Under the pieces are notes generated by a model. The model did no database searches. It was not told the origin of the DNA and saw only the letters and a program-made list of their open reading frames with translations. Below are positions 12,197 through 39,599 of a stretch of 64,000 bases of DNA, piece by piece. Position 1 is the first letter of the stretch. Each line of letters begins with the position of its first letter. The stretch is taken from positions 46,190,001 to 46,254,000 of the forward strand of contig NC_134477.1 in the NCBI RefSeq assembly GCF_964194025.1, in the 5' to 3' direction. The stretch is from Convolutriloba macropyga. Its lineage: Eukaryota. The position numbers were made by a program, and so were the translations under genes.

Positions 12197-14271
12197 ATTA
12201 TTATATATTTTATTGTACATATATTGTAATCGAAAAAATTTAGCCTCTATAAATTTTTGGTTTGTGGGTACAAAAATTGTCTAGAACGGCGAGCCTCCCG
12301 CTCCCTCGCCAGCTGGACTGCCCATTTGCCTATCAGGCTCTTCCTGTTGCTATGCTGCAATCGGTTTCATTTCAGCAACATGCTTTACTTCGGAGTGAGA
12401 GCAATAGAGATCACTCAAAAATGAAGAACCAAAGCGTAAAAAATTCAGTTGAGAAGTAAAAAAATGTTCGAGAAGAAAAGCGCAGAAAGCTCAAGCAAAA
12501 AATTTGCATAAATAAGACCAACACGTTTAGACTAATTGCTACGAACTTGTGCGTTTCTTGATTTGTGCCGTTTCTTTTGACGCCATTCAAGTGCATAAAA
12601 TTTATGTGGTATCTTTTTCTCAGCTAGTATTGAAGTTTCATAGCAATAAGCGAAGAAGGTGAATATTAGCTAAAGTTGCAGCTTCTGGAACGAAAGTTCA
12701 AACTTATCTGCCAGTTTCTACCTTCCGGTAAACACTAAGTTTGCATGAACACATTAGTCATTTTCTAAAGTCACACCTATGGATGATCAGACCAATTAAA
12801 CCTTGTAATCAAATTCAAAAACGGTAAAAATTGAGCAAAGAACGCTCAAATTAAATTAATTATTTTTGAATTCCATGTTCTAAATTATTCAATTTATTTC
12901 AAACTTTCCATTATGGGCTCTTGTGTTTTTATTTCATGAAGGAGACTACGTTTTGTATTAAGTGGATTAAAATTGACCTAAGTTCTTCAAGTTTGCAATT
13001 TTTGGTACATTTCGTATCAATTTTAAACTATATCGCATTTGAAAGCTCTACAAGAGGAACAAATTTTGTTCAATTTAGAAGCTCTTGTTCGACAACTTCT
13101 GCAGCAGTTTGATATGAGGGCCTTCAATGAGAGGATAATGAAGAGATGGTTGCCAACAACTCACTTCAAATAACACAGTTCTTGCCTTTTTGTTCTAGTA
13201 CCATTTGGTCAAATAGATTGCAGCAACATAGAAAACAAAACTTAAATTCGAAAAACCTAATTTGTAATTTTTCATCAAGTCTATCATCAATTTCAATTTT
13301 CTAGATATTACAAAATTCTAGAGGCTGGAAATTTCTTTTGACGGACGTTAGGGTTCTTTAGAAGGGTAAAAAGGTTCATTTGATGTTTGAATGTCATATT
13401 TGCCTAGATTCTAATTTGCACAAAGACACCACCAACAACACATCTTTTCTGAAATCTTCTAATTGTTTTAATTTTTTTATATGAGGCGAGAGATCAAAAT
13501 TTTTTAGGTTCAACTTAATTAAATTGCACAAAAATGAAAACAATAAACTCATAATAACTGCCTCACTTATGTATTATGGGAGTTTATGTTAGAAGTGTAA
13601 ATTTTTAGTTCTAGATACAGAAAGATCTATTTGGTTAGTTCTACAACACAATTAAAGTCACCTAGTAACAATTATCGCCCATTTTTTTTACCTCATTATC
13701 ATCAATTCTGATCAGTTTTCAGGATAAGTTGAACTGAAAAGGCAAAAGGACGGCTTGTGAGAGACTGTACGTATTGTCGAATGTTCCAACATACGTCTCA
13801 AGTTCGTCAAAAATTATTTTTTGCTGAGATGAAAGTTTCTGTTGCAAAGTTTTTTCAAATTTGCAAAACTCAATTTAACCACTTATTCGGATTAAATTTG
13901 AGTACAATTTTCATAAAACATTTTTAAAATCAGAATTCTTATTGTGTCATAGTTTTCCCAGATGAAAAAACACATGGACTCACAATTATTTTGCCTTGTA
14001 AAACAACTTTTTACAGAAATTTAAAGCTCAATAAGAGCAATCAGTAACAGAAATTTTATTTTTAAAAATAGCCAGTAAGCTGCGAAACAAAATGCTTTGA
14101 TCAGTTTAAAAGCTAGGAAACGCAGACAATTGAGTTATTGGACAAGATCTTAGCGATTCCGATAAGAGCTGAAAAAGAGTAATTGAGAATTAAAATCACA
14201 AAATTGAATAAATTTTCCGATTTCCTTTTTTTCATAGAAAATATACCATATTGATAAAACTTCGAATCGAG

Positions 14272-14575
14272 TGTAGCAGTGGAAATACTGAATGTGCACC
14301 TTCAACCAATCAGAGACTGAGAAGACACTATTCTCTTTTATATAGAGAGAACTGAACTAACTATAGTCAGTCTTTTAATTAGATACACCATGTGTATACC
14401 ATTGAATCCGGTGCTATACTTCTTAACTACCGTATTAATAGAAGTTTACTCTCAGTGTTTTTCAGAGTCGGTTAGTCTTAGAGATATAGGTAAGTCTACG
14501 TCGCGGGCACAAATAAGTAGCCCTAGATCTTTATACTTTAAGGCTGTAAAAGGAGCCCACATCGGGTCTGCCTTA
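14272..14575 (+). repeat. 5' LTR of env-bearing gypsy element
   Basis: TGTAGCAGTGG...CTGCCTTA. About 12 substitutions versus the 3' LTR by manual count. Contains TATA-like TTTTATATAG (about 14336) and AG|GTAAGT (14490). Confidence 0.95.
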
Positions 14576-14577
14576 AC

Positions 14578-14592
14578 TGGTGCGACCAGTGA
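14578..14592 (+). promoter_or_regulatory. Primer-binding site
   Basis: TGGTGCGACCAGTGA lies 2 nt after the LTR and begins with TGG, complementary to tRNA CCA. The cognate tRNA was not identified. Confidence 0.7.
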
Positions 14593-14771: not shown

Positions 14772-15570
14772 ATGGATCACTATAATGATCAGCCCTTCTA
14801 CCACGTACAAACACACTGGGACGAAATACAACTAGCTGTTCTGACACAACAGAACAAACGCTTGACACGCGAAATTTTACCCTTTGAAGTTAAACACTAT
14901 CAACACCAAGATGAGCTAAACATACTCTTAAATGCAGCAAAACAGCTTAAATACCTCTATTTTGCAAAAGAACAACAACCTCACCTTTCTTTACCAGAAA
15001 AAGCATCACAGGTTTCACGAACCGCCTTTCTTTCATACTTAGTTGAAATTTACGGAACTCAACTCACAAAATGTTCAGTTCTTTTCCTTTGTGATCCACT
15101 CACAAATAGTTATATCTCGCTAACATACGATACTCTGTTTCACCCCTTATCAGACACACTTTTTGAATTCGTTAACGGAATAAGGTCTGAAATACAACCC
15201 CCAGACAGAGGAGGAATATTTAAAAAATCTTCATTCTAATTTCATAAACGCCTTCACCCGCACTTAATACTAATGCTTTCCACTCTCGAAATGAAAGCAT
15301 ACAGAAAATTGCCCGGCAGGAAATAAAAGGATTCACTCAACTTCTCAAAATAAACATAAGCTCTGTCACAGATGCAGACTTAAATGAGGAAGAGATTTTT
15401 GACTCTCTCACACTTTTATCTTGGTATATACACAGATTTTGGAAAAGTCTGGTAAGACACATTTTTCCAGCCACCAAACTAATAGCAGAAATTTATCCAC
15501 AAATAATCACTAAATTACAGGAAACACTTCATTATATATGACCCAAATTGGTTTCCACAAAATTTCGTAA
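14772..15570 (+). pseudogene. Unassigned ORF upstream of gag (frameshifted)
   Basis: ATG-initiated 155-aa ORF with globular-looking composition. Protein-like sequence continues in shifted frames (RKIARQEIKGFTQLLKINISS...SWYIHRFWKSLVRHIF). No motif recognised. Confidence 0.5.
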
Positions 15571-15579
15571 ACATCACGG

Positions 15580-17000
15580 AAATTCCCTCCGACACAGACA
15601 GAAATCCGTACATTTTAACACAGAACCCATCATTCTTAATAATTCAACTCAACCCACACAAGGGACTACTCAAAATACACAAATCACTCCACAACAATTA
15701 GTAAATATTGTTAGGCAAACAAATTCACAAAGTGCGCAATAAAGTACAAGCGCACCGACTCCTTATTATCTATAAGTGGCGTCTACACAAACGCCATCAC
15801 TTGTAGTTCGCAGGAGTACACAAATGAAGTACCCCTACTTAGGCGGCTCGGTGCCAATGCAACTTTCTTTAAGCACATTTGACGGTACTGACCCCACTTA
15901 CACTACAGGAGATTCTTTAAATGCTATCAGAGCAAATATGGTACAGACAGCAGGACCAGAGCAGACTGATTCACCATTTCATGAAGCCTGGATTTTGAAA
16001 CGAATTGCCATGATCTAAACGGCCCTAATAGGACAAGCACAACAATGGTATTCACTTTTTGACCTAGACATGAAAAAGAATCGGCAAGCATTTTGCCGTG
16101 AATTTCAGAAAACATTCGATATCCAACATTCGCAAACACACGCAAAATTATTACTAGAAAGCATAACACGTGCTTCTGGTGAACAAATTAAGACGCTAGC
16201 ACAAATGAATGACGCACTCGTCAAAGCACTTGATCCACAACTTGTTAGAAAAGCACTTAAAAAGATTGCTAATCACAAATCAACCGCATTGGAACCACAA
16301 CTTCCATTCGCACAACTTGCTGAAAAAATACAGCAGGAAGACATTACATTGACAGGCACAAACTAAATACAAAATCTACTTTTTCACCCTCAATTAATAA
16401 CCTCTCTCTTGAGATAGATAATCTCACCGTAGATGATATACACCAATGGAACAAGATATTGCCCACGGAACAAATGTAGTACAACACAAGTACTCAAACG
16501 ACCCTAATTTTTTGAAGGAAAACCACTCTTCCTAAAATTTTGCGAAAATTGTTCCCGTTCAGGACATAGTATTTCTACGTGCCCTGAGAAAAGGTATACA
16601 AAACCACTTGATAAACCCAATTTTTAAAAACAAACTTTCAATCAAGCAATGAAAGGTAATCGAGACCTTCCTAACAGACAATTTACATCGAATAATATGA
16701 CAAGTAAACCACTACTATTTTTATATCGCTCCCGTAGCAATAGCAGAGAAGATCGAAATCACTCAAGACACAGAAGTCCAAAAAAATTCTTACAAATTAA
16801 TTCAAAACCCTATTACGGAAATAGCCACTTCAAACCACCCCGGAGAAACGGTTCACCATACCCAACACCAAATTTACAAACTAATTCACAATAAAATTCT
16901 AGACCACAATCACCTCACTATAATCGAGACGGAAATCGCTCACGACAACAGTTCTCACAAAATCGACTTCGTATTGTTGGAAACTATATTAGTTCATTAC
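15580..17000 (+). pseudogene. gag: gag (disrupted)
   Basis: Capsid-like segment (LSTFDGTDP...ALIGQAQQWYS...FCREFQKTF) and a perfect CX2CX4HX4C knuckle CENCSRSGHSISTC at 16541-16582, followed by an R/S-rich tail. Confidence 0.8.
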
Positions 17001-17026
17001 TAGAGCAAGAACAATCAGACAACACT

Positions 17027-20000
17027 ATGTCAAATACCGAAAATACACACACTACAAATGTCTCCGAGGAAACACTCCTCGAACAACTATTTAATGATTT
17101 ACTTTTAGAATTAAATGAAGACACACAAGATGAATATTTCAATTGCCATGAAGAATGTAATAATCTCACAGAAAAATACATTCTCTCTACCTCCTGTAAA
17201 AATAATATATGGGTACTACCACTCTTAATCTATACTCAAAAAAAACTTGATCATAAGAAAACAATCTCCCCACCACATCTAGAAATAGATTTTCTACTAG
17301 ACTCCGGTGCAACACTTAATGTATTGAATACTGACACTTGGAATGAAATCAAAGACTACCACAAATTACAGCTGGAAGCATCAACATTTGTTCTCTCAGC
17401 AGCAAATAGTTCTAAATTACAGTCAAAAGGTACAGTAAAACTTACACTCTACCCAGTTGTAACTGAGAGTCCAACTCTCAAAAATACTTCGTTTACACTC
17501 ATTTTTTATGCATTAAATACCAAATTTAATATTCTAGGTACACTTTTCCTTGAAAAATACGTAGATTCAATTAAATGTTCATCTCATACACTTGAGCTCA
17601 AACATAAAAATGATGTAAAGTCACTAAAATTCCACGATTCATCAATTTAACCACCCCTTATTATTCATGCTTATTTCCACTAATTGGAGATCACTCAGTA
17701 ATTTTTACACCATCTGAACACCGTATTTTAACGTATTGGTTAATCGCATATGAATGTAAAAATAAAAAAGCAAGCGGTACCATCCTCTATGCATCTGATT
17801 TCTCATTTACATCACTACGCAAAAATATGTTTTTCTCTATAATGGATATAAACAATCTCGAATATCCCTATCAATCATTTATTCAAATTTTAATACGAAA
17901 TCTTTTGAATCACCCATTAACACTCGTAAATGGAATAATTGGATATGCACTAAATGATGTATCACTCAACAACTACCAAACCATAAAAAATTGCATAAAA
18001 GAACTAACATAATTCATGGATGCTTATACTTTAAATTACCTCACTCAAGGTACGTCAGAAACACTTAAAAAACTTTATTGCTTAAATCTTAGTAAGCAAA
18101 AAGAGCGCGAATATAAATCACAACAGAAAAAATTCACTATACCCTTTGATGTCTCAAAATTCACCAAAACGGGTAAAGCATTTCTCACCATGTTTAATTT
18201 TGAACAAACACAATTAACACAAACACAATTTGAAAAATTGGCACCATTTCTCAAACAATTTCAAAAGTGTTATGCAACTTCCAAGTTCGATATTGGAAAA
18301 ACTAAAATAGAACTAAATCTTCTTCTCAAAGCAACAGCTATCTTTAAAAAAACAAAGAGCTATTCGTTTTCCACTCCAATTACAAGATAGAGTACAACAT
18401 TTACTCGACATCTTAACACACTTTGATATTATAGCACCCGTGAATACAGATTCTGAATCTGTATTCGTGAATCATAGCACCCGTGAATCACCGGAAATAC
18501 ATTCATTAACCCAGTAATCATCCTTAAAATGAGAATCCTTAAAAATTGTCCTAGACGCCCGTCAATTAAACACAATGATTGACAAAACAAAATGTAGTTG
18601 GCCCATAGAACCAATTCAGATTTTTCTAACACGGATTTACGGACCAATTTTCTCTATAGCTGATATGAACAGTGCATACAGTCAAATGCCACTTGATAAA
18701 CCATCAGAAAGACTCACAAATTTTGTGATTGCTGGACAACAATACTGTTTTTAACGCCTATTCTATGGTATTTCTATTGGCCCAGCAGCTTTTTCATCCT
18801 TCATGAGAAGTATTTTTAAACCACCAGTTAGAAAAAACAACATAATCACTTATCTGGATGACATTTTCATCCAAGACAAAACAACAGACACAATGTTGCA
18901 AACAATTACTCAATATCACACTACTTTAGAGAATGAAAACCTCAAAGCGCTCCGGACAAATCGTTATTTTTCTTAGACTCAGTTAATTTTTTAGGACACC
19001 AAATTCAAAATAATCACATACACCCACTCAAATCAAAAATAGACGGATTTTTAAAACTACAACCACCCAAGAATAAAAAATAATTTCAAAATTATGTCGA
19101 ATTTCTCACCTTTATTTCAAAATATATATACAACCTAAAAGTCATTCTTCGACTTTTTTTTATCTCCAACTCAGAGATACAGCAGATTTTAAATGGACTC
19201 CTGAATTACAACAAACACAAAGAGTCAAGAACGAACTTGCGGACGGAACACTCCGCCTCGCAATTCCGAATTCAGAAAAACCTTTCTATATTCTTTGCGA
19301 TGCCTCTAACTGTGGCATTGGAGCAGCACTCCTCCAAAAAAAATGAATTTGAAAAAATGGAGCTAGTGCCGGCAAACTCTCGTCTATTTTCAACCACAGA
19401 ACTTAGATTATCAACCATTCTTCGCGAATGTTCAGCCATCATATATGCACTTTCAGAATTTGAAGTCCTTATTCAAGGATCTAAACACCCAATAATATTA
19501 TACACTGACCATATACCAATTTTATTCTTAATCATACCAAAGAATCAAAAGAATAAACCAAATCACAGAGTTTACAAATTTCATTTAATACTAATGAAAT
19601 TTCCAAAACTACAAATAGTTTGGACGGAAAGAAAAAATCTTTCACTTCCAGATCTACTAAGTCGCTCACTGACAACAACAACACAAGACGAACACCATCA
19701 TCGCACAGTCGAAATACCAGATTCTCTTAATTTCTTTATGACGCACAATCAAAAAACACAACCTATACAGTGTCACTACGCAGTATCAAAAGAATACATT
19801 AACACGATATCTACAGACACTCATGTAGAATCACTTTCCAATCTACTTACAGGTTGAAGATAATTATTTGAAAGTACAAATAGAAAATGATCTTTATCCC
19901 CCAGTCTCACATTATGAATTTAAAACCAAAGCACAGACCTTAGAGAATATGCACCAACAGAAACTACAACAGTTTAAAAATAATTACCCTCTCCTAGAAA

Positions 20001-21738
20001 ATTATCCTATTATACAACACAGAGATGTCACACTAAACACAAACAAGACAGAACCTTTCATACAATTCAACCACAACGCAAATTACGCTGAATTAATATA
20101 TAGTATAACACTTCCAATCCCAGCAATGGACGACTTTATACCAAAGTCCCCAACCCTTTACAATTACATCTACGAGGAACGAACTGAAATAAATGATACA
20201 CTCCTCTATCAAACACAACAACAAGACCCTGTTCTAAGACAACATCTACTTTGGAAACACTACAAAAATTTCCCCCCAACCTCTTCACTAACTATACGAG
20301 CAAAAGAGGATTACTACATTATTATCGACGTTTTCAAAATCTAAGCATTAACGAAGACAATAATCTCCTGTATTACATACAAGAAACAACGTCACCAAAA
20401 ATGTGCCTACCACTCTTCTCCTAGTTTTTTTTTATAAAGCACACTCTCATGATCTTTCAGGACACCCTGGTCGTGAAAAAGACACGCAACAATCAAGGAA
20501 AACTATTTTTTCCAATCATTAATACATGAATAGCAATACTTACACAAGATTGCTTAAGTTGCCAAACTAGCAAATCGATGCCAAATCTCTTAATGGCATC
20601 ACAACAGCCATTCATTGAAGTTTCACCATACTTCAATCAACGTATTTCAATGGATACAAAAGGTCCAATCTCACCGCCTTCTGACGGAAACTCTTACTTC
20701 TATGTTATTGTAGACGCATTTACGCATTATGTTATACTCCACCCTTCTCCCAAAAATGATGCCACTAATGCACTCACAATTTTATTTGACCACTCGATTG
20801 TTAAATTCGGCATTTCAGATATTTTGGTGACAGATAACGGAAATGAATACATTAAGGGAGAATTCACGCATTTCTGCCGTACACATAATGTACAATTCAA
20901 ACCACGTACGCCATACGCACCGTGGTCTAATGGACGGACACGTTGAAAACAGTAATCGCCAAAAAAACACATTTCCCCGTACAGTCTTAGACTCACAATA
21001 TGACACGTGGTCACGCAAAGTGAAAGTTTTTTCGTTTGCATTCAATTCACAGGTCAGGACAAATTTGAACCTTCTACCATATGAACTTGTATTTGGTCAA
21101 AAACCAAAGAAACCTATAATGTTCAACCTATTTTCCACTACAGATAGCTTAGGAAACTGTAAACCTACAGACAATTCACCTTGTAATTCATTCCCTGATC
21201 ATACACATAGTGAACACTTAGGCCATCACCCACAAATTAAAAAGTTACAGAAAGGAACCTTTGCACACTGATTTCTTAATCGTGAAAAGATGCACTCGGA
21301 AATTTATAACGAAGTACATAATTATTTAAACCAAAATAAACATTTACGCACATTTATAAATCGCCGCTTTGGAATGGCACAAACACTCAAAATAAACACT
21401 TATGTTTTAGTCGTAAATAAAACCACACAAATCGGAGTATCAAAAAAATCCAACCACAAAAAATTGGACGTTATAAAATAAAAGATACTCCCACATTGGT
21501 CACGTATAAATTAGAAGATATCTCTGGCAAGCAAATCACCCGTCATAGAAGTAATATAGTACCATATTATCCCAAAGAACTCTTCGTTCAAGAGCAAATG
21601 GAGAAATACTTCTCGGATAGTTCACTTTTAAAACTCCATCCAAAAAAGCCACCACTTACCAAGTCGAAGACTGTCTCGTTCAGTCTAGACAATTTAAAAG
21701 TACCATCCACAGATGACCTTCCCCCAACTACCTTGTAA
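17027..21738 (+). pseudogene. pol: pol: protease, RT, RNase H, integrase (disrupted)
   Basis: Protease FLLDSGAT (about 17290). RT FSIADMNSAYSQ and YLDD (18851-18862). RNase H ILCDAS...LYTDH...PDLLSR. Integrase GHPGREK/CLSC, SMDTKGP, VTDNG, PWSNG. Confidence 0.93.
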
Positions 21739-21814
21739 CCCGTCTGAAATACCCGAACACACTTCGGAAAACTACACTACAAGAAACAGTCGTCTTCACG
21801 AACAACGCACACTT

Positions 21815-22071
21815 AAAATTTCGGCTTCAGGAACAACGCACATTTAAAAGCATTCACACTTCACTAATAGAACACACGTTAGATCAATCTTCTCGCTTTA
21901 TATAGCCAAATACAAGCTAGCATAACACGCTAAATATTTAAATCAAAAATTTCGGCTCCACAAACAACGCACACTTAAAAGCATTCACACTTCACTAATA
22001 GAACACACGTTAGATCACCCTTCTCGCTTTATATAGCCGAATACAAGCTAGCACAACACGCTAGATATTTA
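21815..22071. repeat. Two about 131-bp direct repeats downstream of pol
   Basis: AAAATTTCGGCT...AACAACGCAC...GCATTCACACTTCACTAATAGAACACACGTTAGATC occurs at about 21815 and 21946. Confidence 0.9.
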
Positions 22072-22714
22072 CTAAAAATATTCACGATAAAAATACAATC
22101 CCCTCGTTCTCTTATACGAGAGGGATATTTCGAATAGTTCCTTCACCCCTCTCCCCCGTAATACATTACTTTCAATAGGAAAATTAATCAAACCTCTTAG
22201 CCCAGTAAACAAAGCACACGGACTTTCTCTTCACCAGCTTCCCTAGCAGAACCACAAAAACCCTCATTCAGGAAAAGAAAAAAAGGGAATTACAGGCCCT
22301 TCCCCACGATAATAATAAAAAGGAAAATAACTAAAAATTAAGTTAATAACCGACCTACAGCTCGGTCCGGGAAAAATTCCCCAATCTCATTTATTTGCCA
22401 AGATATTACTCGGTAATTTTTTGCACCCCACTAAAATGTCGTGGTCAGGCAAAATCATATCGTCTAAAATCACTTTTCAGTCCACCACTCTTGAAACTTA
22501 GTTGCTCCTCTCTTCTCTCTTATTCTTTCAACAATATTCAATAATCTACTACTGAACTTCTCTTCTTCACTCTTTTAAATTTTAAGTTAGAAAATCTCTC
22601 ACTTTTGTAAGTAATTTTTATTTCTCACTTCTTCTCTCTCTATCAAGAAAAAACTGTCTCACAGTACAGTTCTTTAGCTCTTCTAAACTTTAATTTCCTT
22701 GACTTCACTTACAG

Positions 22715-24470
22715 CTCACAGAAAGCTCTCAAAAATCTGAGCAGGGAAGCAACAACGACTACAACACTCAAATCATAACTTTCAGTCTCACAGTACTGAA
22801 AGCATCCTTTTCGACAGATTTTTAACAGGTATGCACATAACTTCTCAACACAGACTAGAAGTACTATTTAAAAGAACACCCTACGCTGATACTTTAAGAT
22901 GTATCCAAAATTTTAAACCTAGACAGGTCCGTTTTCAGGATATTTTGTATAACCCTGATCACATTCTATATTCGCATACTTGTTCTGAATGGGGTTTTAC
23001 ATTACAGATTTTAATAACGAACACATTTCTATTATAACGAAACTTTCTATCTTCCTATTTTTTCCACCATAAGCTACGCCAAAACTCTCTGAAATTCTAT
23101 ATACAGATATTGTCTGCACTGTTAATCTCGACGCTATCCCAGCCTCATATGATATTAAATACATTAAGGAACTCCTAAGATTGGATGAACAATACCAACA
23201 AATTGTCAAACAACAACAAATCAACAAATGAAATTACATATCCGCACGTTATTTTTTTCTTTGAACGAAAAGAATACCTAATTGCTGAAATCTTAACAGT
23301 TGTTCTGCTGATTTTTTAGATCTCATCTATCTCCATAATTTCATCCCACCAAAATCACCCTGCGCAGCAATCCAAGTAAGTATACCCACTATAAATCTCT
23401 TAATAATTGTTATACCCACATCTACTGATTATAAAATCTATTATTGCGATAATTGCCCCAATCTGGGCCAAAGATTATCGTCACAATTGCGTCCTCTAAT
23501 CAACAATCAAACACTAACCCAAGTGCTCCCCCCGTCTCAGAATCGCCTAGTTGCTCATGCAGCGAAGCAACTAAACAATCAACAGCCAAAAAGTCATCAT
23601 ATAAACTCTTTAATAAAAAACCACAAACACAAGAAACCGAGGAGCCCTCATACTCAGTCATTACTACTGCCAAATCTACAGATAGACCTCGTCCTACTGG
23701 ACACTCCCCCCACTTTTCCCCACAGTCGGTAATCCCATATCCCCCATCAAAGTCAAACGCAAATACACCAAACGCAAGCACAACAACAACAACAACAAAT
23801 AACTGCACAAACTTTATTGCCATACACTGGTTTTCTTCCAAATACGACACTCCCACCACCCACACTTATACCAGCTCCTCCACGAGCACCACAGCCTGAA
23901 TTACTAAATTATTCAAACATTCCACAGTTCTCCACTCAACCAATAAATTTTGCAAACACTGATAAAACTAGTAGCTCAGATTTGCCACAGCCAATTCAAA
24001 CTGTCTCAAATATTCACGATACCCCACATGCTTTTAGCCTACTTTCTGACACTTCTAACTCTGATCCAATTAGTTCTCATTTTTCTTCACCGACTGCATC
24101 ACAAAATGCGAATAATCCTTTTAATTCGCCACAAGGACAAATAACTAATTTTGAATGTTTGTTATCACAAGCACACTGGAACCACTCTTTTAATTTTTCA
24201 ATTCATCACCTTCTTTCAAAACTCGCAGCCACCCAGTTTTCCGGGTACACCACTCATTATCACTTTAAGCTCAAATTCACCGACACCAGATCCGGAACAA
24301 CATTCTCATCACTGTATTGGGAAACAACCCGACACAATACGAACTTATCCAACTCTACCATTTAAATTAGATCCTAAATTTATTGTTCCCCCACCCGCCC
24401 TCTTTGGAGACAATAATAACGGAGAACAATTACATAATTGGGCTAAACAAAAAATCTCTAAATCATAACA
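22715..24470 (+). pseudogene. Unassigned ORF remnants between pol and env (globular segment, then Pro/Ser/Thr-rich segment)
   Basis: Overlapping plus-strand ORFs 22831-23037, 23453-23899, 23817-24365 and 24151-24468 are joinable by frameshifts. No motif recognised. Confidence 0.45.
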
Positions 24471-24479
24471 TTTCCACAC

Positions 24480-26750
24480 CTAAAACAGGCATACCAGATG
24501 TTGTCGTCACGCATTATGACTGTTCACCAAAGCATATCACAAATATGCAGTATTATAAACTCAATAAAATTGGCGAGTGTAAAATTAATCCGGCCGACTT
24601 CAAAATCCTCGCCGCCCAAGTACAAATTTTTCACAAATCCGAACACTACAAGTAGCCGCTTACGCCGTACACGCTAAACTTAGTGATAAGGAAAGCTTTT
24701 GTCACAAAATTGCACTCAAAAGTGGTTTTCGGTTTGATCACGATAATTGGAATGTTAATAAAATGGAACGAACTTTCTTTCAAACAGAAACTGAAGGTCG
24801 TCGAGAACTTGCACGAGTTGGTCTAATAAGTAAAACCCAATATCGCCCTCTAATGATACAATTCGACGTAATAGACGACCCCCGCTGGCAAGCTAATATA
24901 GAAGAAAAACATGTCCGTTTTTGTTTAGATCGTTATAGACCCTTTTCTTTCCAACACGGAGGCATCTTTTATAACCCACGTGATACTAATTGGATTCCTA
25001 ACGCCACAAATAATCCCTGGGCTAACTGTCCCGGTAAAAACGCAGAACACGAATATCATGTCATCCACACACTAGGAGGGTCATTTCAATTAAATAACAT
25101 CACTCACACCTGTGATTTTACCTCAGAACACATGTACTATGGCAAAATTCGCAGTAAGTGTGATCTAGAACGAGGTCACTGCCCTCCAAATCACGCTATT
25201 AAAGCCACAGTAATTTGGGAACCCGAACACCACTGCCGTATTTTTGATGTTGGAAGATCACATGCACGTATGATTAAATTTCAAAAAAGATACTTCATTG
25301 AAACACTCGAAAATAATGAAACTAATTCTGGTCATAAACACAATGCACACATGTATTGAAGTCGCTTTCAAAAACACCTTTGCGATGAATCCTCACTTTC
25401 TCGTTTTGAGGTTCTCACAAAACACCTCTACAAATGTAATGAAGACCACCCATATTACGCCACTCAATATCAAGACATTTTTATACAATAAAAAGAAGGT
25501 TTTAATTTTGTCTCAGGAAAACCGTCACCCGACTTTGATATTACACACATTACAGTCCCTGACGGACCACCCTCTTTAACACCTTACACAAAAGCAAATA
25601 TCCGTGATGGATATTTTATTCCTCAAGAGTCACAATTATATCACAAATCAAAAAATTACGAGTTAATTAGAAAACAAAATTGGTTTGGCGCTGTTCACCT
25701 TGATGTCCAAATTGATGCAAAACATGATTACATCATCAGTCGAGTCTTGCTCGGAATGGATCAAACAAGTTTGAACATTTATAAGAAACTCTGCGACTTA
25801 GACCCGACTTGAACAAACCGCTTTCATTTTACTCACACAGAAATTTTCTTTGGTTGGTTATATAATTACAGGACAGCGACACACATTCGCTACACTTAGA
25901 AGTCAAAATATAATTTCACTCTTTCAATGTAAAGTTGTTTCATCACCCCTTTATGTATTAGAAAACCATTGCTTCGAACGTACTCCTATATATTATCAAA
26001 AAAAATTACAATTTGTAGGCCAAGTCACCCGAAAGACCTTCCCCTGGTCTAAAAAAGCATCGTGTAAATCTAAAAAGTTTGATCAACAAATCTCACTCGA
26101 CGCAGACGGCGATGACACATATCGCTTAACACCCTATGCAATTAAGGCGCGAAATTGCGTTAAAACTTTTACGCCTGACGAAGTTGAAAACCGCTTCACC
26201 CACGCTGATTTTACCGCGCAACAACTTGAATTTACCGTCAACACGACTGGACTAAATCAATAGATAAGAAGAAATTTAATCAATTAGTTGATGACGCGGC
26301 TGAAAAATTTGATGTAGCACGCGCAGTAAAATTTGCAGATATTGCAAAACAAGCACAATTACAAGCACAATTCTCACAATTACACATAGAATATAATGAT
26401 TAGTTTAACAAACTCTTTATTAACGGCAAAGAATTAACCCTCCGCCGACTCGATTGGCGTGACTTGATTTTTTACAGTGTCTTTAATTTTTAATTTTAGT
26501 GTGTTTTTAATTTTTTACAGTGTCTTTTTTGCCTATTTTGTAGTGCATTTAACACGTATAATCTAAAAAAACTTTTAGGACCCAACATCACATTGGCTAA
26601 AATTATAACCTCCGGATTTTTTGGAGTATTTTCACAAACAATATTCCATGTGCTACAATCCGATTCCACGCAATATAAACCACCATCACCTAAGAACGAC
26701 GTAGACACTCAATTGACAGTTGCACTCCACACTCTCAACATGAATTGAAT
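24480..26750 (+). pseudogene. env: env-like glycoprotein resembling class III (chuvirus G / herpes gB-type) fusogens, disrupted
   Basis: Ordered motifs: VVTHYDCSPKHITNMQYYKLNKIGEC (YDC at 24515-24523); VQIF..QIRTLQV; CDLERGHC...VIWEPEHHC; KCNEDHPYYATQYQDIFI; IDAKHDY...IYKKLCDL (helical); IISLFQCKVV...CFERTPI...FVGQVTRK...ASC; hydrophobic segment at about 26460-26640. Confidence 0.75.
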
Positions 26751-27060
26751 TTATTAAACAAAAAATTCGAAAATTTCTATAAGAAATTCTCGTCTCTTGT
26801 GCAAAATAACTCAAATAAATGATATACATCCACTCTTCCAGCCTCTATTTATCAATGCTATGAAACACCAATTGATTCTTGTACGAAACCAGACTTTCAA
26901 TCTCTACACCTACACACCTTTCAACCTAATAAGCGTAAACGCTCACGTGTAATTTCTCTTTCACGCGACTCTCTTGACAAAGATCCTGACTATCAGGAAA
27001 TTCCAGAGGAACTTTTCCTTAACCTCCCAAGTTCTCGTCTTTAACACCTTTTTGTTTTAG

Positions 27061-28818
27061 TAACTCCACTGCAGTTCCTACCCACCAAGAATGAGGCTCA
27101 CCAATCCCCCCAAATGTCGATCCTACAGCATACGACCTCACCATGCTGGAGGTTGATGACGTTCTGCCATCACCCCTCACTCCATTGCTACTGGCACCCA
27201 CAGTACCCGGACCAGTTTGCGAAATGCAAACACCAGCCCTCTTCACGATGGCGCAATTTTCCCCACAGCCACAGTCTGTGGACACAGTCAAATATGCGCG
27301 GGTGAACCCACTGCCTTCACCTGCCACTTCTTCCTCCACTCTTTTCTACTGCGCACACTGCAGTATCCACATCACAACCACCAATCCAGTCTACGAGCAT
27401 TCCATCTTGGGCTGATGAAGTCGCCACAGCGGAGGAGTCAGGCAACTCCACACCAGAAACGGTTGTCCCCAACTGGGCGTACTCCGGTAGGCTTTGTGGA
27501 GCACGACCACGATCACAGCAACTGGTCTACACACCGCCAGTGATGCCAACACCGCATACACAACGCCCGCCGGTACCCTCACCGCGGTACGGCACGGCTT
27601 TACCACCTCTGAGACCACAACAATCTTTCCCTCAGCCAATCCCCTACAACAGACCCACGTCAACCGACAATTACCCGTGTACTGATCCCTCAACAAAGAA
27701 GCTCCCACGGCCAACAACACACGAAATATATATCCCGTTCGCTCTTCACCGATACAGGCTTCACAGTCGCCTGCTCGTCACACAACGAGCCCTTCCTGAG
27801 GCGCTCAGCCCTCATCTTCTCGCGGAAAGCCTAACCCATTCTCACCAACACACGGCATTCCACGCAGGTCACAACGACCAAATTTCAGATTCCACGAGTT
27901 TACAAACCCTCTCGGCATTAATACCATCCAGGGTATACAAGTGCCAGAGAGAATCGATTATACTTCCACTCCCCCTCAGCACACGCTGAAAGCAACAACC
28001 AGTTCCTGGACAATTGGAGAACGAATATGTTCAAGAAGGACGGAACAAGGATCTGCCCCTTGAATGCATGCACTTCCCTCTAAATCCTTGCTTCACGGAA
28101 CAATTTCGGCATCTCTCAAAGTACTTCTTTGCACTTGCAGATCGACCAAACGATTACCTTAATTCTTTCTTTACTCGTGACACTGCAGCCTACAAAATAT
28201 ATGCCAAATACGACCCCCTCTATTTACAATTTGGTTTTTTACATCCCACAAAGTTGGATGTAAATAACACCACTCATGAAGTAAATCGGGTGAAAAAGCT
28301 CCACACGATGCACACCTACTTATTTGTGCAGCATCATTTTCAACACACAAACCCGATCATCCACATGAACTCGCGTCTTCAGTATGCTAACACAAAGCTG
28401 ACTTCACCATATTATATGAATTACAGCTACATAATAAAACCCAACTATTGTGAAGGCACCCGTCGTAATTCTGACCCGATCAAAAACTATTTCTCCACTC
28501 TATGCCAAGACTATTCGCCCCATCCTCGTCCCAATCGAGTATCTACAATGTGTAGAAGGAAGCGCCACGAAGTGTGCCTATAGACACACTTTGAACCTCC
28601 TCTACAGGGACTGGATGGCCGATAAGCTCGACAATCGACAGCCTTCACCAGAAGAAACACAGATATTCAATCACCCTCTTGCGTTACAACCACACTGTAA
28701 CGCTGATCTGTATCCCCGTGCCCTTGCTGCTTGTCTGGCACGTGATCCGGAATTCCTCGCCTTCTTCCGTGATCCAGACAACCGAACTCCGGATTTCGAT
28801 TTCGAATACCGGACGTAG
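27061..28818 (+). pseudogene. Unassigned long ORF remnant downstream of env
   Basis: ORFs 27540-27989 and 28014-28583 share a frame separated by one TGA, flanked by 27143-27415 (CAHC motif) and 28450-28818. GC is higher than the flanks. A splice-acceptor-like TTAAC...TTTTTGTTTTAG ends at 27060. Confidence 0.55.
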
Positions 28819-29484
28819 GCCACCAACCTACAGCACCACTTTGGGCTCACAGACCCACAAAACGAGACTCACTGATCTCAAAAACTCAATCTAAAATTAT
28901 TTTTCTCTTTTTCTTATTTCTCTTTCTCTATTATCTATGTCTGAAGATCAGGATCAGTTCTTTTCTTCTTCTTCCCGGTCGGGACTTACAAAAGAAAGTA
29001 TTAAATCTCACTAATAGATTTAATAGAAAAAGTAGCTCACGCATTAGCTAAATGATGGATTTCCACCAGAAGGTAAGCTGGTAAATCCGACTGGTTCAAA
29101 CCTTATACCAGGTGGAGATAAACAGAAATTTCCTCGTGCAAACCAGACAGAGACTACGGACTACAAGCGATCCTCAAACTTGGAATAAATCCTCACTACA
29201 GGACAGTGAGAGCAGTTGGGCATACTCTCAACAGGACTGAAGTTACTGGCCAGCAGACCCTGTATCGGGCAGTCTTACTGGTTACACAAACGAACCTTTT
29301 TACTGACGACACTAGTCACTACTTCACTGACAGGGACTCCAGACGACGACACAAGTCACAATCCACTTCAGAGAGGACACAACTCATCACTCACTTCAAC
29401 CTACCCTTCAACGAGGATGACACATTCAATGTATTTCTGCTGCACTTCACAAATTCGGATTTGAAACTCTCAACCCCGGATGGA

Positions 29485-29788
29485 TGGAGCAGTGGAAATA
29501 CTGAATGTGCACCTTCAACCAATCAGAGACTGAGAAGACACTATTCTCTTTTATATAGAGAGAACTAAACTAACTATAGTCAGTCTTTTATTTAGATACA
29601 CCATGTGTATACCATTGACTCCGGTGCTATACTTCTTAACCACCGTAATAATAGAAGTTTACTCTCAGTGTTTTTCGGAGTCGGTTAGTCTTAGAGATAT
29701 AGGTAAGTCTACTTCGCGCGCAGAAATAAGTAGCCCTAGCTCTTCATACTTTAAGGCTGTAAAAGGAGCCCACATCGGGTCTGCCTTA
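29485..29788 (+). repeat. 3' LTR of env-bearing gypsy element
   Basis: Direct copy of 14272-14575, followed by TSD CGAG. Confidence 0.95.
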
Positions 29789-32700
29789 CGAGATTCAGTT
29801 ACAGACTTTAGTTTAAAAAGTGTTACCGAGTGCCAGAAATTGCACAAAAAGAGTTCAAAATTATAATGACTTTTTTGCAACAACTTTGTTTCGAGTTATT
29901 TTCAACTCGTTTGTCCTATATTCAAATAATTATATTTTGTTCATTTTCTAAATGAGTTACTGAAGTCTTTTATATACTCAAGCTGCTGGTTTTTGTAAAT
30001 TGGTGTCAATCAAACGTGAATTCCATAGAGGAGGTGTAATTCAAATACGGTCAAACATAAGTCGACGAGAATGCTGCAGGGTTTTTCGATGACTGCGGTT
30101 TTAAAGGCAAGAAAGGTATAAATTGAAATTCGACATTCCTTTTCTTATTCAATTTATGTTTTTGATTATCCCCTAAAAGACACTCATATTCTGTTCATTT
30201 GCTGTCAAAATGAAGCTCTTAAATTTAGGAGACACTGTGACAAAGTATTTAAAAAGTGCTCGAAACAGTTCATCAAGAAAACTTGTTGTTACATTTCCAA
30301 GATTTTTTCCCTTCTGATCCGAGTTGTTTTAAAGCGGAATTGTACCGGCAAATTCATAATTTTCACTTTCAAATTAAGGGTAAGTACCCGGCTATTACAA
30401 ATACAATTTTTTCAAACAACTGTTTTTTTTCCTTTTTTTTAATTCAAAGAAATTATAAAGATCTTCTGATAACCTTACAATTCAAAACAAAATTTCTGAT
30501 CACGTTTTACCTACTAATTAGTTTAAAAAATCAGAGAGATCAACAGAACAAAGATAAAAAGGCTTCAGTTTTCGTTTGTTTCTTTCGCGCTCTCTAAAAA
30601 TAATTGTATATCATTCCTTCATTAATTGTTTTTTCCTTTTGCTTATTTAAAATCTTTGTCAGTTTAGAAACTTCGATTCACAAATTTAATAAAAAACTGT
30701 TTTCTGTTTTGGTATTATGGCAAAACAATGAAAAAAAAACTATTTAAAAAAACTAAAAGAGAAACGACGTGGAAAATGAAGAACCTCAAAGAAAGTTTTT
30801 TTGCGCTTTGAACACTTTTTCATGGAGTTATATTTTAATTACCACTTTGTTTCAATTTTCCGCAATTTAGCGTAACTATGAATTCTTAATTTATTAACTT
30901 AATTTTAAAAAGTTTACAACAATTTTTAATATAAAGAATTTTTTTTACCCCAACCCCCCAAACACCTTCATGACTTTTTTTGTGTTATCCCGCCAATTTT
31001 TTTAAAAAAAAAAATCAAAGCACCGCTTTAAACCTGCAATAAAAATGTAAATAAACATCAGAAGTAGACTCTGAGGGCTACAAAATGATGCTTACCATTT
31101 TTGTCTACAGTTCGTAATCAAAAATGTTCGAACAAGGAGAACATAGCCGACAGATTGCCGGAAAATAGCCGCCGTTGACGCTATTGATGCATATCTGGAT
31201 TGAAACCGAAAAAAAAGAAGAGATACACTGAACAAAATTTTTTCTATTTTTTTTTCAGTGTCAAAAGAGTTCCATTTCGGCGTGCAGTTTTGGTTGGATT
31301 CTAAAACTATACTTAATTCAGCTTCTAAACTAAAACCTAACAAGTTTAATACCAATTTCAGCTAGCAAACACTCTAAAGAACTTTGATAACCCAATTCTC
31401 AATGAAAAAATGACCGGGTTTCATTGGTTTATCCCGTCTCTTTTGATTTTGCTCTTTTGCTATTGAATTTATTCCCTATCTTGAGTATTTCAATGAGTGA
31501 ATGGATTTAAACGACACTCAGTTGAAACAGTGAGTGAGGTAAGTCAGAAGTCAAACGTGAAAGTCGTGACTTATGTAAAAGAAAAAACGTGATCAAACGG
31601 TAAAGCGAAATAAAAAAACAAAGAAGGACAAGTCCTGAAATACATTTCAATGAATTGTTTTAATTTACGACCTGACAATCAGTTAGTCTGCTCTAAAAGG
31701 CAAATGAGAGCTGATAATAATGAGACTAATACAACAACACAAGAACAACAAATACAAGCAAGATTTAAAAAAGTTCAACATTTAATTTTTGAAAAGAAGT
31801 GATCAATACCAAAACACAATTGCTATGAAGTCAAACTTCCAACTATACCTCTCCACTTTTCATAAATCAGATGCCATTGAATGACAATGGGTCCTCCCAC
31901 TAGTAATATTAAATAACAAGCCAAAAATAACCAAAAACCAAAAAAATTCGCCTACATTTTTTGAAAACACTTAGTATAAAGGTAACAGATCGGAACAGCT
32001 ACTGAGGGATACAATTACACTAAATAGTTTAAATCCCAACTACCAACGTTGAGGCCTGTCATCAGTGAATTGAAGTGATAAGACAGCAATAACTACAACA
32101 AACACTAGCAAAACAAAAAAATCAGTAAGATTTCTTTTTAGAAAAACGAACCAGCGATCCAGTGTATAAATCACAAAAGGCAATAGCTATGAACTGAATT
32201 GATGAGCTTTAATTGAAACCCTTTTTTAGGAACCGATGAATTTCGATAAATATTTTTGAGAACAATTAGTTTCAATGTCATAGAAAGCTCTAGCTTTGAA
32301 CGAAAACAATTAAATCTATAATAGTAATTCCTATTAGCAGCGTCAGATACCTGTCCCAATTAGATTACAAGATAAGACATCAAAAAATACAATAAATACT
32401 TGCAGAACCCAAAAAATCAGTCATGTTTTTTTAGAAAAAGTAGTGTCGAAGTCATGAAAACCACTAGCTATTAATTCGAGCCATTAATTAGTTTCTTTTA
32501 TGCCTCATTGGCAACCAATCAGACCTGTCATTGATAATACTAAGTGATAATACAACAAATATTACAATAGTATTTTGATATAAATCACGCCTCAAACGTA
32601 CTCGATTTTTCGCACCCTTTACTGTTTCAGTTTCACCAAAATCACCCATCTAATTTGACTTCTCACTGACGTGAAAAAGCCGAAAAAAGCCTGAACAGAT

Positions 32701-34959: not shown

Positions 34960-37800
34960 AAACAAACTGTAAGATCTCCCCATGGGTATGAAAAAAACTG
35001 GATCTCGGCACCATACACAAGAAATTTTACCTTTCTGAGTTGTAGACATTAATTTTCTTTTGCCAAGATTTAACAAGATTTTGGCACCATGAACTTTTCC
35101 TAAAATATCTTACCAAAATCTAACCAAAGTGTTCCGAGTAGTAATGTCCTATCAAAATAAAAAGTCCGAGAGATCAAAAGTTCAACAGAACGATGATCAA
35201 AAAGTTTCAGTTTTCTTTTGTCTCTTTCATACTCTATGTAAAAAAATAATTGTCGATTCATAGGTTTAATAAAACTGTTTTCTGTTTTGGAATTATGGCA
35301 AAACTATTTTTTTAGAATCTGGCCAAGATTTAACTAAGGCGTTCCGAGCATTTTTGCCCTATCAAGATCTTGGCAAAAGATTTCAATTTTTTGCCAGATT
35401 TATAATGATCTGGTATGAAATGACAAGGCATATCAAGTTTTGATTCTCTGACTAACTGAAGGGTTTTTGTCGAGCTTAATTCCAGAGTTTTTGTGTGAGT
35501 CATAGTAATAATTGAGATGCACGCTGTTTTTGCTCTCATTCTCCTGATATTTAATTTACCATTTGATAGCGATTTACCCTGTCCCTTTTGACACCAAAAT
35601 CAAGCAAAGTTAAACAAAGGAGCTTTATAGTGTGGCATGGTAAGCCATCGTTTCCACGGTAAGTGACTCAGCTTGCTACTTGGTAGAAACAATCATTTTC
35701 ACTCTAATAACTCCAGATGTTAAAAAATGTGTTGATCATAGAGGAAATGGAAATCTGTCCCTTAAGATGCTGAAATCATATAATTTTCGATTGAACGACT
35801 GCAGCAGCCAAAATGACACTTTTTGCATGTCAGTTTTGTATACGTCAGAAACATCTGCAACAAAAACTTTTCGAACTGATGGCTGCATTGAAAACATAGA
35901 ATATGACAGGAAAATAGAAAGATTTAGTAGTTCCATTTGTTTTTCGGTTTGCGTGCTCCAGTGTGTCTGTTTTACATTACCATGGAAGAAGTTTGAGGTT
36001 CAACTGTTAACTTGAATGCAAATTGATTGCAAAAATTTTATACTCTTCGTGTTTGCATAGAATAATAAATTTGAGCAGCATGAGACTGTTTCCTTAGTTT
36101 CTAAAATCCACATTTTTGATCCCTTTGATCTGACAACGTGAGTTTTTATCATAAATAGCTATTTCAATGTGCACTTATAGTTTATTATACCTATTTCCTT
36201 GTGGATTGCGATCTAACTTTGCCAGCTTTTGGATTTATTTGCCAGAATAAATGATTTACTTTTTTCTACTCACTGTGCTCTTCAGACCTTTCACTGGACG
36301 TTACATGAACCGTGAAGGGTTAATTGCTGAAGTTTTCAGCGAATTTCATAAATTGTTCACTAGATCAGGGTGCCAAATAATTCGTTATTGACTGCCACTT
36401 CTTTAATAACCGGCAATCAATTTTTACAATTCAGCTAATCGGCAATTAACACTCCTATTGAATTTACTTCACTGATCTCCTATTCTCTTATTGGTTCCAT
36501 TTTCAAGTTAGTTCGTAGTTTTTTCTGTTGGGTCAAACTCTAATCTTCAAAGTTTAAGATGCAACTTGTTTGGCTTTAAAAAATTAAGGAATGAGATGTC
36601 AAGTAATAAGATGAACTTCCTTCCAAAAAAATGGGTGGGTGGGTTCTTCGCAATACAGATTTTAATGCAATTTTTTCATTGATGTCGAGTTTCTATGGAA
36701 GGAATATTTACGGCCGAGCCTTAAATCTTGTCTTTAAGGCGATAATGTCCCAAAAAAAATCTCACTGCTGCTGCCGCAAGATGCCCCTTTCATCAAAAAA
36801 GAGAAATACAAGGAGAACGAAGAAAAAACAATGTTCATGCGGTTAAGTCCGGTTAAGTCAGTGAAAGTAGATTAATAAATGGAACAAAATAACGAAACTC
36901 CGATATTTTCCGTTGTTTTATCGGTAAATTTCAACTCTTGGTTTCTTTCTTCCAAAGCTACTGTTAAAAAACATAGGTCGTTTTATTGGAGCAAATTTAA
37001 AAAATCTTTTTTTTTTGAACTTCCAAATATTTCACAACAAAAATTGTTTAAATTAGGTTTCGGTGAGAAAACGGTGTTTGGACAAAAATTCGTTTTCTCG
37101 CTTGTGGTTCTTTGTTCAAATGCGACATTTTGATACTGATTTTTACTATTTTTCAATTTTTCTATTTGATTGTTTTCTAAATGGCGTTCCCAATCCATGC
37201 ATAGTCCATTCTGGTTCGTTTTCTTAATTAATCAGTGAAAATCGTGTCAAGTTTGTTTAACTTCAGCTTTACCTTAAGTCACAGCTTGTTCAAAAGTTTG
37301 ACTTCTCTAGTCTAGATTCATTCTCTGCTCAAAGTGTTTTTAAACAGCAGTTGGTTGCTCAGAAAAGCAATCTAAAGTGAACAGAATCAGTACCAGAAAA
37401 CGAAATCAAAATGATCTCAAATTCTACAGTTTTTTTCTGCAATTTTCGGCAGGATTTTTTTAAATGGTTTTTTTAATGCACTCAGAGTCCTTGTCCTAGT
37501 CCTTGTCCTTGCTTCCGGATTTGTCCTGCTATGTTTTTACGTTTAGAACGAGAATTTTGAAAAGTCACATCATTAACACCCATGTGCAAACATATTTAAC
37601 ATCACATATCATCACGTCATTGCTATGGAAATTAACCTCTCTCTTACATCTTTTTGGTTGAATTTTTGAGGGGTCAATATTCTAATACTCGCTAAGTAAA
37701 CGCCATTACCTGCGGCTCAATATCTGCTTGAACTGATTTTTCGGGTTTACCTTTTGAATAAGTTCTCCCTCATATCCTGTCCCTTATAAAATTTACTCAC

Positions 37801-38393
37801 CTGAAAAGTGTTAGTGTTAACAATATCATTCGGCCGATCACCCACATGATACCAAGTCGCAATGTATCCAAAATCAGCATCAAACTTCGGATCTTGGAGC
37901 TTGAATATTACAGTTGACAAGTCATTATCCGACATCCGTCGATATGAGACCTCGGCACCATCAATATCTCGTTTCTGTCGCGTACCCGAGACAAATTTGT
38001 TCTGAATCAAAGCCGGCGCAATTATGTACTCTCTCAAGTCAAAGAAATCTGAGGGAGTGATTGAAATTGCAGATGCATTTTTGCAATCAAGCACAACATA
38101 GCCATCGTTGCATATACAAACTTTATTAAATTGAATGTCGAATATTTTAATGTTGTTGCTGAGCTGGACAGGATCCGAGCATATGCCATCAGTGAGCTGA
38201 TTCAAACTATTGCCAGCATCATCACCAATCGGAAATTCAGCGCAGAAACTGCCCGGGTTAAGAGGCATGATTGGGTCACGTGATCCCCTTTGGTCCAATT
38301 CAAACAACCAGGTTCTAGTGTAATTGTTATTGTCTGTAGTTGCCAAAAGTGAGACATTTGCTGTTCCCGATCCTTCCATTTCCCAAAGAGTAA
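37801..38393 (-). CDS. NIDO-like protein paralogue B, exon 2 (593 nt)
   Basis: TTTTTAG| acceptor and CAG|GTGAGT donor. Highly similar to 4284-4876. Contains RQKR and YIATWYHV...NTFQ. Confidence 0.88.
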
Positions 38394-39599
38394 CTAAAAA
38401 ATTATATATAATCAACTACATTTTGGATAGAAAGTCTAGATCTTCTTGCAGTTGGTTAATTTCGATTTACAACACACAATTCTTTCAAAACACTTTTTGA
38501 ATATTTGTTAAGAACTTAAAATGGAATTTTTTGTTACCAAGAACTTTGTGATGGAACTTTCACACGATACAAGAGGCTGGGTTATGTGTTTAGGAGTATT
38601 GCATACTTTCCTTAATTTTAAATCCAAATGGAAAAAAAATAGAAAAAAAAGGATAGCAGATAAATTGCAAGAGAAACAATACAAAAACAAAAATATTACA
38701 AAGTTATTGACGTGTAAGAACAGGCAAGTCTATGCCAAAACGAACATGTTCCTGCAATACAATCAATTAAGATATATAGCAGTTAGTCACTTGACTCGGA
38801 AGAAACTTACAAGTCAACATTTTGGTCAACAAGAGGCACACACAAAAATCATTTGACTCAAAGTACTAACAAATTTGTAATTTATCATGAGTTAGCTTTC
38901 TACTTTAAAGGAAAGTACGCAAGATATCTTTAGAACAATGTCGCCTTTTGAAAACAAAACCAAAGAGGCAATGCTCCACGTAAAAGATTTTGCTTTTGCA
39001 AAACCGCCAACTATCGACTTTTGCAGAATAAACAAAAAGCTGGAAGCGCACGATATCGTAAAAACATCTCAAGAACATCACTGATTACATACTCTTAGCG
39101 CTAAAAACAGAGTTCTAGCGGGTGTTGTCGGCAAAACATATTGTAATTTAGAAAATTTGAATTGACAATTAACTTGGTAAACATAACTATGTGCATCGAT
39201 ATAACAGATCAACAGTTTAATTAATCATCTTTCATCAGTCCATTTCAATTCTCCGCAAAAGAACTTTTGTTTTTAGTCTCCCCACTTTGGCCAGGAAAGA
39301 TAAAAAGCTTGTGTTTGAAAAAATTAAAATATCCTGAGTGGTTTCTCTGGACTGGATCAACTACTGAAGTTCCACCTACTTGATCAGGTAACAACACAAT
39401 GACAAGAACAAGTACTACGTTATTTCAGATGCCTTAGAAGAATTTTTCTTTCCTTTGGTGAGCTTGGAAATTCTCTCAAAATCAGCAAAGACTTTAATGG
39501 CGCCCGGGCTCGCAACATTACCGCAGACCCATAAATTACATTTACTGAGAAAAACCTTGACAACCTGTCGGGAGCAATAGAAAACACTTCCAATAGATA

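Follow-up and report, generated by a model that had tools for sequence, protein, structure and literature searches.

A probable decayed gB-type env copy in a large Ty3/gypsy family of an acoel genome, accompanied by four further open reading frames under purifying selection

The Drosophila elements gypsy and ZAM, as treated in the available part of Chary and Hayashi (eLife 2026, PMC13524379), are the model of soma-to-germline infection by an env-bearing gypsy element, and they carry an F-type env with a furin site in a layout of three ORFs. The same paper describes errantiviruses whose env is of the HSV/gB type, and its survey, in the part accessible, comprises 1512 env-bearing gypsy elements across invertebrates, with the gB type as common as the F type and with elements found using chuvirus-like baits included; the search applied a first filter of 1 kb, followed by a 3–5 kb manual or ORF extension, and uninterrupted gag, pol and env were the criterion for a gB-env errantivirus. 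A glycoprotein of the same type has been placed inside an LTR element of mosquitoes, Anakin (PMC7642597, available portion), and LTR elements enlarged by additional ORFs are represented by planarian Burro and fish foamy-like ERVs (PMC6431247, partial text) and by rotifer elements with an ORF3 (PMC5408684, partial text), the former source noting that ORFs occasionally lie downstream of env or in the interval between pol and env, and that Burro has a RING-related motif. Because gB-type env in gypsy elements has been described across animals (PMC13524379, as available), the env type alone is not new. The initial annotation of the present locus had pointed to such precedent in invertebrate LTR elements and had expected any novelty to lie in lineage and context, which is where we found it: the host is an acoel, and four additional ORFs are conserved, neither of which the annotation had seen.

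The locus lies in a stretch of 64,000 nucleotides from Convolutriloba macropyga (hereafter the window) and is probably the decayed env of one copy in a large Ty3/gypsy family of this acoel genome. The mitochondrial cox1 of the assembly is 91% identical to that of Symsagittifera roscoffensis, 75% to one further named match, taken to be an acoel, and 68% or less to named matches outside the acoels, which places the host among the acoels (Xenacoelomorpha) provided that the window contig and the cox1 come from one animal. A 15.5-kb Ty3/gypsy element spans the region that had been annotated as an envelope, and that region is its env gene (Table 1). The family layout is LTR - gag-pol - U - V - X - env - Y - LTR, that is six ORFs, with gag-pol in a single frame. 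Like the gB-env errantiviruses in the available part of PMC13524379, the family combines a Ty3/gypsy pol, the order gag-pol-env, a signal peptide and a transmembrane (TM) segment with absence of a furin site, multiple copies, recent insertion and a tRNA-Met primer site. It differs from them in host, since Xenacoelomorpha are missing from the taxon list there (acoel and xenacoelomorph terms were absent from the accessible text and seven supplementary files), in having three ORFs within about 2.8 kb between pol and env compared with the first filter of 1 kb, and in that uninterrupted gag, pol and env were not found in the eight elements examined here; the main text of that paper, as available, never uses the word 'accessory'. 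Where gypsy and ZAM have an F-type env, a furin site and three ORFs, the present family has a gB-type env, no R-x-K/R-R word and six ORFs, and where Anakin combines its glycoprotein with a BEL/Pao pol in an insect (PMC7642597, available portion), the pol here is gypsy-type and the host an acoel. The env region of Burro, within the partial text of PMC6431247, matches gypsy (F-related) Env and lies inside a polyprotein, whereas the env here is gB-type and has four unmatched ORFs around it; rotifer ORF3s (PMC5408684, partial text) are single known enzymes or F-type env, whereas the U family described below is tandemly multiplied in a sister lineage.

Table 1. Features of the Ty3/gypsy element in window coordinates.
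Feature	Position	Strand	Remarks
Left target-site duplication	14268..14271		4 bp; identical 4-mer at 29789-29792
5' LTR	14272..14575	+	304 bp, termini TG...TA
Primer-binding site	14578..14592	+	complementary to 3' end of host tRNA-Met(CAT)
gag-pol	14772..21967	+	capsid, CCHC knuckle, protease, RT, RNase H, integrase; many stops and frame breaks
ORF U	22831..23200 (end approximate)	+	about 128 aa; broken in window copy
ORF V	23185..23480 (end approximate)	+	about 95 codons under selection; broken in window copy
ORF X	23453..24467	+	Pro/Ser/Thr-rich N-part with PSAP, conserved C-domain; Met-less
env	24467..~27044	+	chuvirus-G/gB-type fusion glycoprotein by sequence similarity; pseudogene in window copy
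ORF Y	27143..28818	+	about 596 aa from ATG; low-complexity N-half, conserved C-domain of about 270 aa; broken
Short purine-rich tract adjoining 3' LTR	29478..29484	+	
3' LTR	29485..29788	+	
Right target-site duplication	29789..29792		4 bp

By its anatomy the element is a Ty3/gypsy element (Metaviridae), having LTRs, a tRNA primer site and a 4-bp target duplication, with termini TG...TA and not TG...CA. The two LTRs of the window copy were 96.05% identical (12 mismatches, gapless), and a block of strong strand skew of about 15 kb coincided with the LTR pair. When the window element was examined together with seven elements fetched from the genome, the 4-bp duplication was present in seven of the eight, the remaining one having a cut LTR end, and a purine-rich word, identical or nearly so, preceded the 3' LTR in all eight. 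The tRNA-Met primer-site pattern occurred at 90 sites genome-wide against 0 for the reversed control, and ARAGORN called tRNA-Met in both loci scanned. Pfam searches of window pieces and one natural copy returned protease, RT, RNase H and integrase in that order, with a Ty3-type RNase H, which is the gypsy order, and CX2CX4HX4C knuckle, YLDD and GPY motifs were seen in family copies. Among solved structures the RT was most similar to Ty3 (E 8e-29), followed by foamy (4e-18), caulimovirus-type (6e-18) and MLV-type (1e-10) entries, a similarity ranking rather than a tree, in which the group names are partly what we take the entry codes to mean. The gypsy context proposed in the initial annotation was supported by the Pfam order of pol and by the closeness of its RT to Ty3.

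Three other assignments were considered and set aside. Troyka has CG...CG termini, a 3-bp duplication and no env (PMC12440569, accessible part), compared with TG...TA, 4 bp and an env here; Odin/lokiretrovirus has a dual RNase H (PMC9040795, accessible part), compared with a single Ty3-type RNase H after RT here; and membership with Anakin in BEL/Pao is contradicted by the gypsy-type pol, as judged by Pfam and the ranking of solved RT structures. No second RNase H was detected in the bridge between RNase H and integrase by Pfam or by PDB sequence and profile searches, a fold-level remnant being possible.

For the characterisation of Env, the 881-aa ORF of a natural, less decayed copy was used as the query. 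It matched Pfam PF24664 (Monjiviricetes_fusion) at E 8e-14 with 50.9 bits (cut-off 27), and the Atlas feature search scored chuvirus-type G at 0.96, herpes gB at 0.94 and rhabdovirus G at 0.93, at a recognition of 1490 on a scale where high scores count as strong from 2300. No F-type env match was obtained with this copy in Pfam or Atlas, and sequence and profile searches of the PDB returned nothing significant. There were 685 relatives at E <= 0.001, including long ones at 24–32% identity; all 13 distant relatives scanned matched PF24664 (E 1e-22 to 1e-47), and all 12 ectodomain cysteines were invariant across the 14–15 distant relatives aligned. On sequence similarity, Env is a member of the chuvirus-G/gB family, so that the protein type named in the initial annotation is upheld by the profile search, with its chuvirus-type and no F-type match; a class III fold would follow from that family membership together with the available parts of PMC13524379 and PMC7642597. 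The natural copy has hydrophobic segments at residues 3–21 (signal-peptide-like) and 721–739 (TM-like), four ectodomain sequons and no furin word (R-x-K/R-R). In a quick tree, in which placement is unreliable, the env of this family formed a long branch of 4.3 changes per column, and its PF24664 score was far below those of the sister families; the two together leave room for a changed function of Env. Relatives sought with the env query were confirmed for none of 221 JGI metagenome matches, nor for any of 22 pattern matches in IMG/VR.

In the window copy, the motifs that had first drawn attention to the locus are all present in the order given, although scattered over frames: YDC (24515), IGEC (24569), a cysteine pair (25159-25182), the W within VIWEP (25210), IDAKHDY (25711), LCDL (25789), QCKVV (25925), CFERTPI (25970) and TRK (26027), followed by the hydrophobic remnant of the anchor from 26509. 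Two details were misread, the spacing given as C-x5-C being C-x6-C and the 'NIT-like' word reading HIT. An independent profile, built from 15 distant full-length env relatives with none from the same family, was run against 1495 natural stop-to-stop pieces of the window and gave six colinear matches between 24371 and 26745 (E 2.5e-27 to 5.4e-4), the best match elsewhere in the window having E 0.079; five env pieces scanned singly gave no Pfam match. The extent of 24480 to 26750 assigned earlier therefore does hold env, as the six colinear matches indicate, but the gene continues to about 27042-27044. Aligned to the natural protein, the window copy spans its residues 31–881 as five blocks that fall in three frames and contain six in-frame stops. 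A 352-nt deletion at about 24467-24474 has removed the end of ORF X and the env signal peptide, and a loss of 95 nt at about 26458-26503 has taken the first part of the membrane anchor, a lesion crossed by one 131-nt contig in each of two sequencing runs; the run contigs over 22500-29000 are short and mix copies, and single-base frame breaks are accordingly given as read in the assembly. The signal peptide and TM segment predicted in the initial annotation were recovered, by hydropathy only, in the natural copy and were lost or damaged in the window copy. The window copy is inert and cannot be infectious: the present infectivity entertained earlier is excluded for it by the lost signal peptide, the damaged anchor and the stops. 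The same lesions (no signal peptide, part of the anchor gone, six in-frame stops) refute a host-domesticated, syncytin-like env at this locus, a reading in whose favour we found nothing and which, with the window copy being one of at least 149 matches, has virtually no probability left.

The family to which this copy belongs is large and has been active recently. The same genome contains at least 149 matches to env, 145 to Y and 153 to U, the env figure being a lower bound from the 148 candidates scored of 2064. LTR pairs were 94.8–100% identical across the eight elements, two of the eight pairs being 100% identical, which indicates recent insertion of the family, the window copy being older. 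Not one of the eight elements examined, out of these at least 149 env matches, had every ORF unbroken, and the intact copies envisaged in the initial annotation were thus not among them. Env was kept under constraint, with dN/dS of 0.09–0.14 in all seven comparisons, compared with 0.07–0.13 for RT, and a median of 0.12 over 17 copies measured against a single reference copy; the env ATG was kept in 20 of 21 copies.

By analogy with Drosophila errantiviruses and by homology of its Env, the family is likely to be an enveloped, errantivirus-like gypsy element moving between cells by means of a class III fusogen. Env would sit on budded particles as a trimeric fusogen of class III and would let the element pass from an expressing cell into another, most likely a germ-line cell or a stem cell that produces the germ line. 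Selection on env shows that it is used and not how, and an intracellular retrotransposon whose Env was retained for direct cell-cell fusion or passage, or for blocking receptors against rival elements or viruses, is an alternative that we consider unlikely. The strong divergence of env, an Env tail with no canonical late-domain word, the statement in the available part of PMC13524379 that the entry mechanism of gB-type elements is unknown, and the proposal of receptor blocking for solo chuvirus glycoproteins (PMC7642597, available portion) are all compatible with it. That proposal, though, concerns solo copies kept by the host and not a gene selected within an element, and Env here has been retained in multiplying gag-pol elements with both hydrophobic segments and all 12 cysteines, which argues against this alternative.

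Codon periodicity, computed on copies selected by env, further revealed an excess of mismatches at third codon positions not only in gag-pol and env but also in four more stretches, corresponding to U, V, X and Y. In estimates that all share one reference copy, median dN/dS was 0.06 for U (24 copies) and 0.16 for the N-half of Y (29 copies), both from loci picked by protein similarity, which lowers dN, 0.25 for V (24 copies), and 0.14 in the middle and 0.05 in the C-domain of X (31 copies); for the C-domain of Y, dS was saturated in six of seven comparisons and the seventh gave 0.05. The controls gave 0.95 for the pol-U spacer (17 copies) and 0.8–2.8 for shifted frames. The ATG was present in 24 of 25 copies of U, 21 of 25 of V and 28 of 30 of Y, the Y stop was found in 30 of 34, and env sequence lay directly upstream in 28 of 30 Y loci. 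These data show that U, V, X and Y were under purifying selection while the family multiplied. None of the four had a significant match in Pfam or PHROGs, nor did Y in the Atlas, and PDB sequence and profile searches gave nothing significant for the Y domain, the X C-domain or the U family (best E 0.92). The best 120 of 245 matches to Y were all ENA proteins at 44–85% identity, most of them located on long contigs; as they may derive from the same or a closely related species, we do not treat them as independent relatives. In the window copy most of the X C-domain is deleted. Between pol and U, at approximately 22320-22440, lies a conserved non-coding stretch devoid of codon periodicity; 19 of 24 copies preserve a GGTAA word in it, and the stretch is a candidate internal promoter, splice signal or RNA signal.

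The four stretches need not correspond to four genes, and a smaller number of products is a possible but doubtful alternative, in which V and X (perhaps with U) would be joined into a single product through a frameshift or splicing, and Y would be a spliced or read-through partner of Env. X is Met-less, the two frames V and X overlap with a -1 offset in 16 of the 24 copies, and a slippery-type heptamer lies within the overlap in 17 of 24; the V frame also stays open beyond its roughly 95 codons in some copies. Near 23480, on the other hand, some 115 nt 5' of the heptamer, it is already the X frame and no longer the V frame that is under selection, and no strong structure follows the heptamer; a -1 frameshift at this site joining V to X is accordingly not supported. 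In addition, U, V, env and Y each retain a separate ATG, and a separate stop is kept by env and by Y. The handover from V to X falls in a brief segment of high conservation, within which an ATT sits in a favourable context for initiation, and this ATT leads us to guess at a non-AUG start for X. Either outcome alters the gene count only, and the conserved extra coding capacity stands.

As a weaker inference, the extra ORFs would be accessory genes in the style of complex retroviruses. A PSAP word occurs near the start of X in 11 of 14 pattern matches and is absent from the family's own Gag and Env tail, while among distant relatives the Env tail carries PSAP, PTAP or PPxY in 6 of 14 (9 of 14 if [AS]PPY is counted). 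PSAP binds TSG101 and thereby ESCRT. Quite tentatively, X may act in budding as an adaptor of matrix-like type, bringing in ESCRT and supplying the late-domain word that Gag and the Env tail lack; within a Pro/Ser-rich stretch, PSAP can also be a chance occurrence. U, V and Y might act on host defence or on element RNA, two options that we do not rank. The position of X just before env, with its PSAP, recalls rhabdoviruses, in which M precedes G, and the top Pfam and Atlas matches of Env are Monjiviricetes fusion proteins, all of which would suit a lineage-specific capture of env, perhaps with its neighbours, from a chuvirus or another negative-strand RNA virus, X being a captured matrix-type gene. 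We regard such a capture as quite improbable: X has no match in Pfam, PHROGs or the PDB, the deeply diverged env of other gypsy families in the same genome interleave with other relatives in the tree (a quick search that took in no named chuvirus G), and ancient co-divergence of env and pol is argued in the available part of PMC13524379.

Sister families with gB-type env were then described from seven fetched regions of the same genome, where PF24664 gave at least 99 matches among 68 scored candidates, many of them open frames of 770–900 aa. An 18-kb family (three copies, on contigs C15, C6 and C12) has a PF24664 env, LTRs of about 810 bp that are 98.9–99.9% identical and a primer site different from that of the window family; its env has three abutting, paralogous ORFs of 104–110 aa upstream and one ORF of 284 aa plus two small ones downstream, the five small ORFs being mutually linked paralogues. 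The U profile matched the best of these at 22 bits (E 5e-7), compared with 11.6 bits for the best of 2500 shuffles, so that by sequence U belongs to a family of small proteins multiplied in this sister element. A 12.4-kb family (contig C2) has gag-pol-env with the same tRNA-Met primer site as the window family and a 611-aa coiled-coil-like ORF after env; an env related to it at locus L118 has a weakly GDSL-like ORF upstream (E 0.0095) and no pol match nearby. In two further families (contigs C5 and C10), env is followed by runs of related 75–115-aa ORFs and by RING-like ORFs, the best matching zf-C3HC4_3 at E 3e-6. Two of the RING-like ORFs start with Met-Gly, a possible myristoylation signal, and one has a weak zf-P11 match (E 0.01). 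No homology of Y to the post-env ORFs of these families was found. Identity to the window family was 40–42% over RT-RNase H for three sister families and 21–24% over env for several. As the sister families have ORF arrays of their own, such accessory arrays are a trait of the lineage and not a peculiarity of a single element. On contig C10 (L112:2526-10000), env and accessory ORFs lie between LTR-like repeats 99.6% identical and about 7.5 kb apart, with no gag-pol match and with the 3' repeat running past the fetched stretch; this is possibly a non-autonomous, env-only element.

What is new, then, is the acoel host lineage and a six-gene layout resembling that of complex viruses, of which sister families have their own versions; for acoels, no description of gypsy elements with an env or with several accessory genes was found in the open-access literature. 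How gB-type gypsy elements assemble, bud and enter is posed as a question in the available part of PMC13524379, and the family supplies candidates, since selection on env and its four companions, one with a budding-type motif, names putative helper genes. It also brings in an early-branching lineage of Bilateria, a point relevant to the pre-Cambrian age that has been proposed for gypsy elements with an env, and the long gap between pol and env suggests that filters for three-ORF elements may miss similar ones elsewhere. In a related acoel, roughly half of the genome consists of LTR elements (PMC9911081, accessible part), and with such a share enveloped multi-gene elements may drive the growth of acoel genomes. 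More speculatively, and short of what we would expect on balance, acoels could host still-mobile 'complex' enveloped metaviruses of 12–18 kb, equipped with accessory genes and spreading as true viruses. These would be an invertebrate parallel to the complex retroviruses, passing between cells and perhaps between animals, with accessory sets made up of the U family (five paralogues in one sister family), the PSAP-bearing X and RING-like proteins.

Several other observations were made in the window and the genome. On the minus strand, 48096-54406 holds a decayed second LTR-type element whose ORFs appear BEL/Pao-like by eye from their motifs. Host-like exons of an extracellular protein, which we take to be NIDO-like from their motif, lie on the minus strand at 37747-38415 and 44303-44965, and similar DNA at 4277-4884 and 7845-8326 points to duplication of the gene. 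Tandem duplications of 1.4–2 kb with 91–99% identity occupy 1-3655, 9192-11985 and 40525-44133. Elsewhere, long tRNA-Met arrays matching the primer site were located on contigs C1 (about 77.67-77.77 Mb) and C4 (about 55.03-55.06 Mb), with tRNA-Thr interspersed in one scanned locus, and fragments of cox1 on contig C13 (L036, L037) are probably mitochondrial insertions into the nuclear genome.
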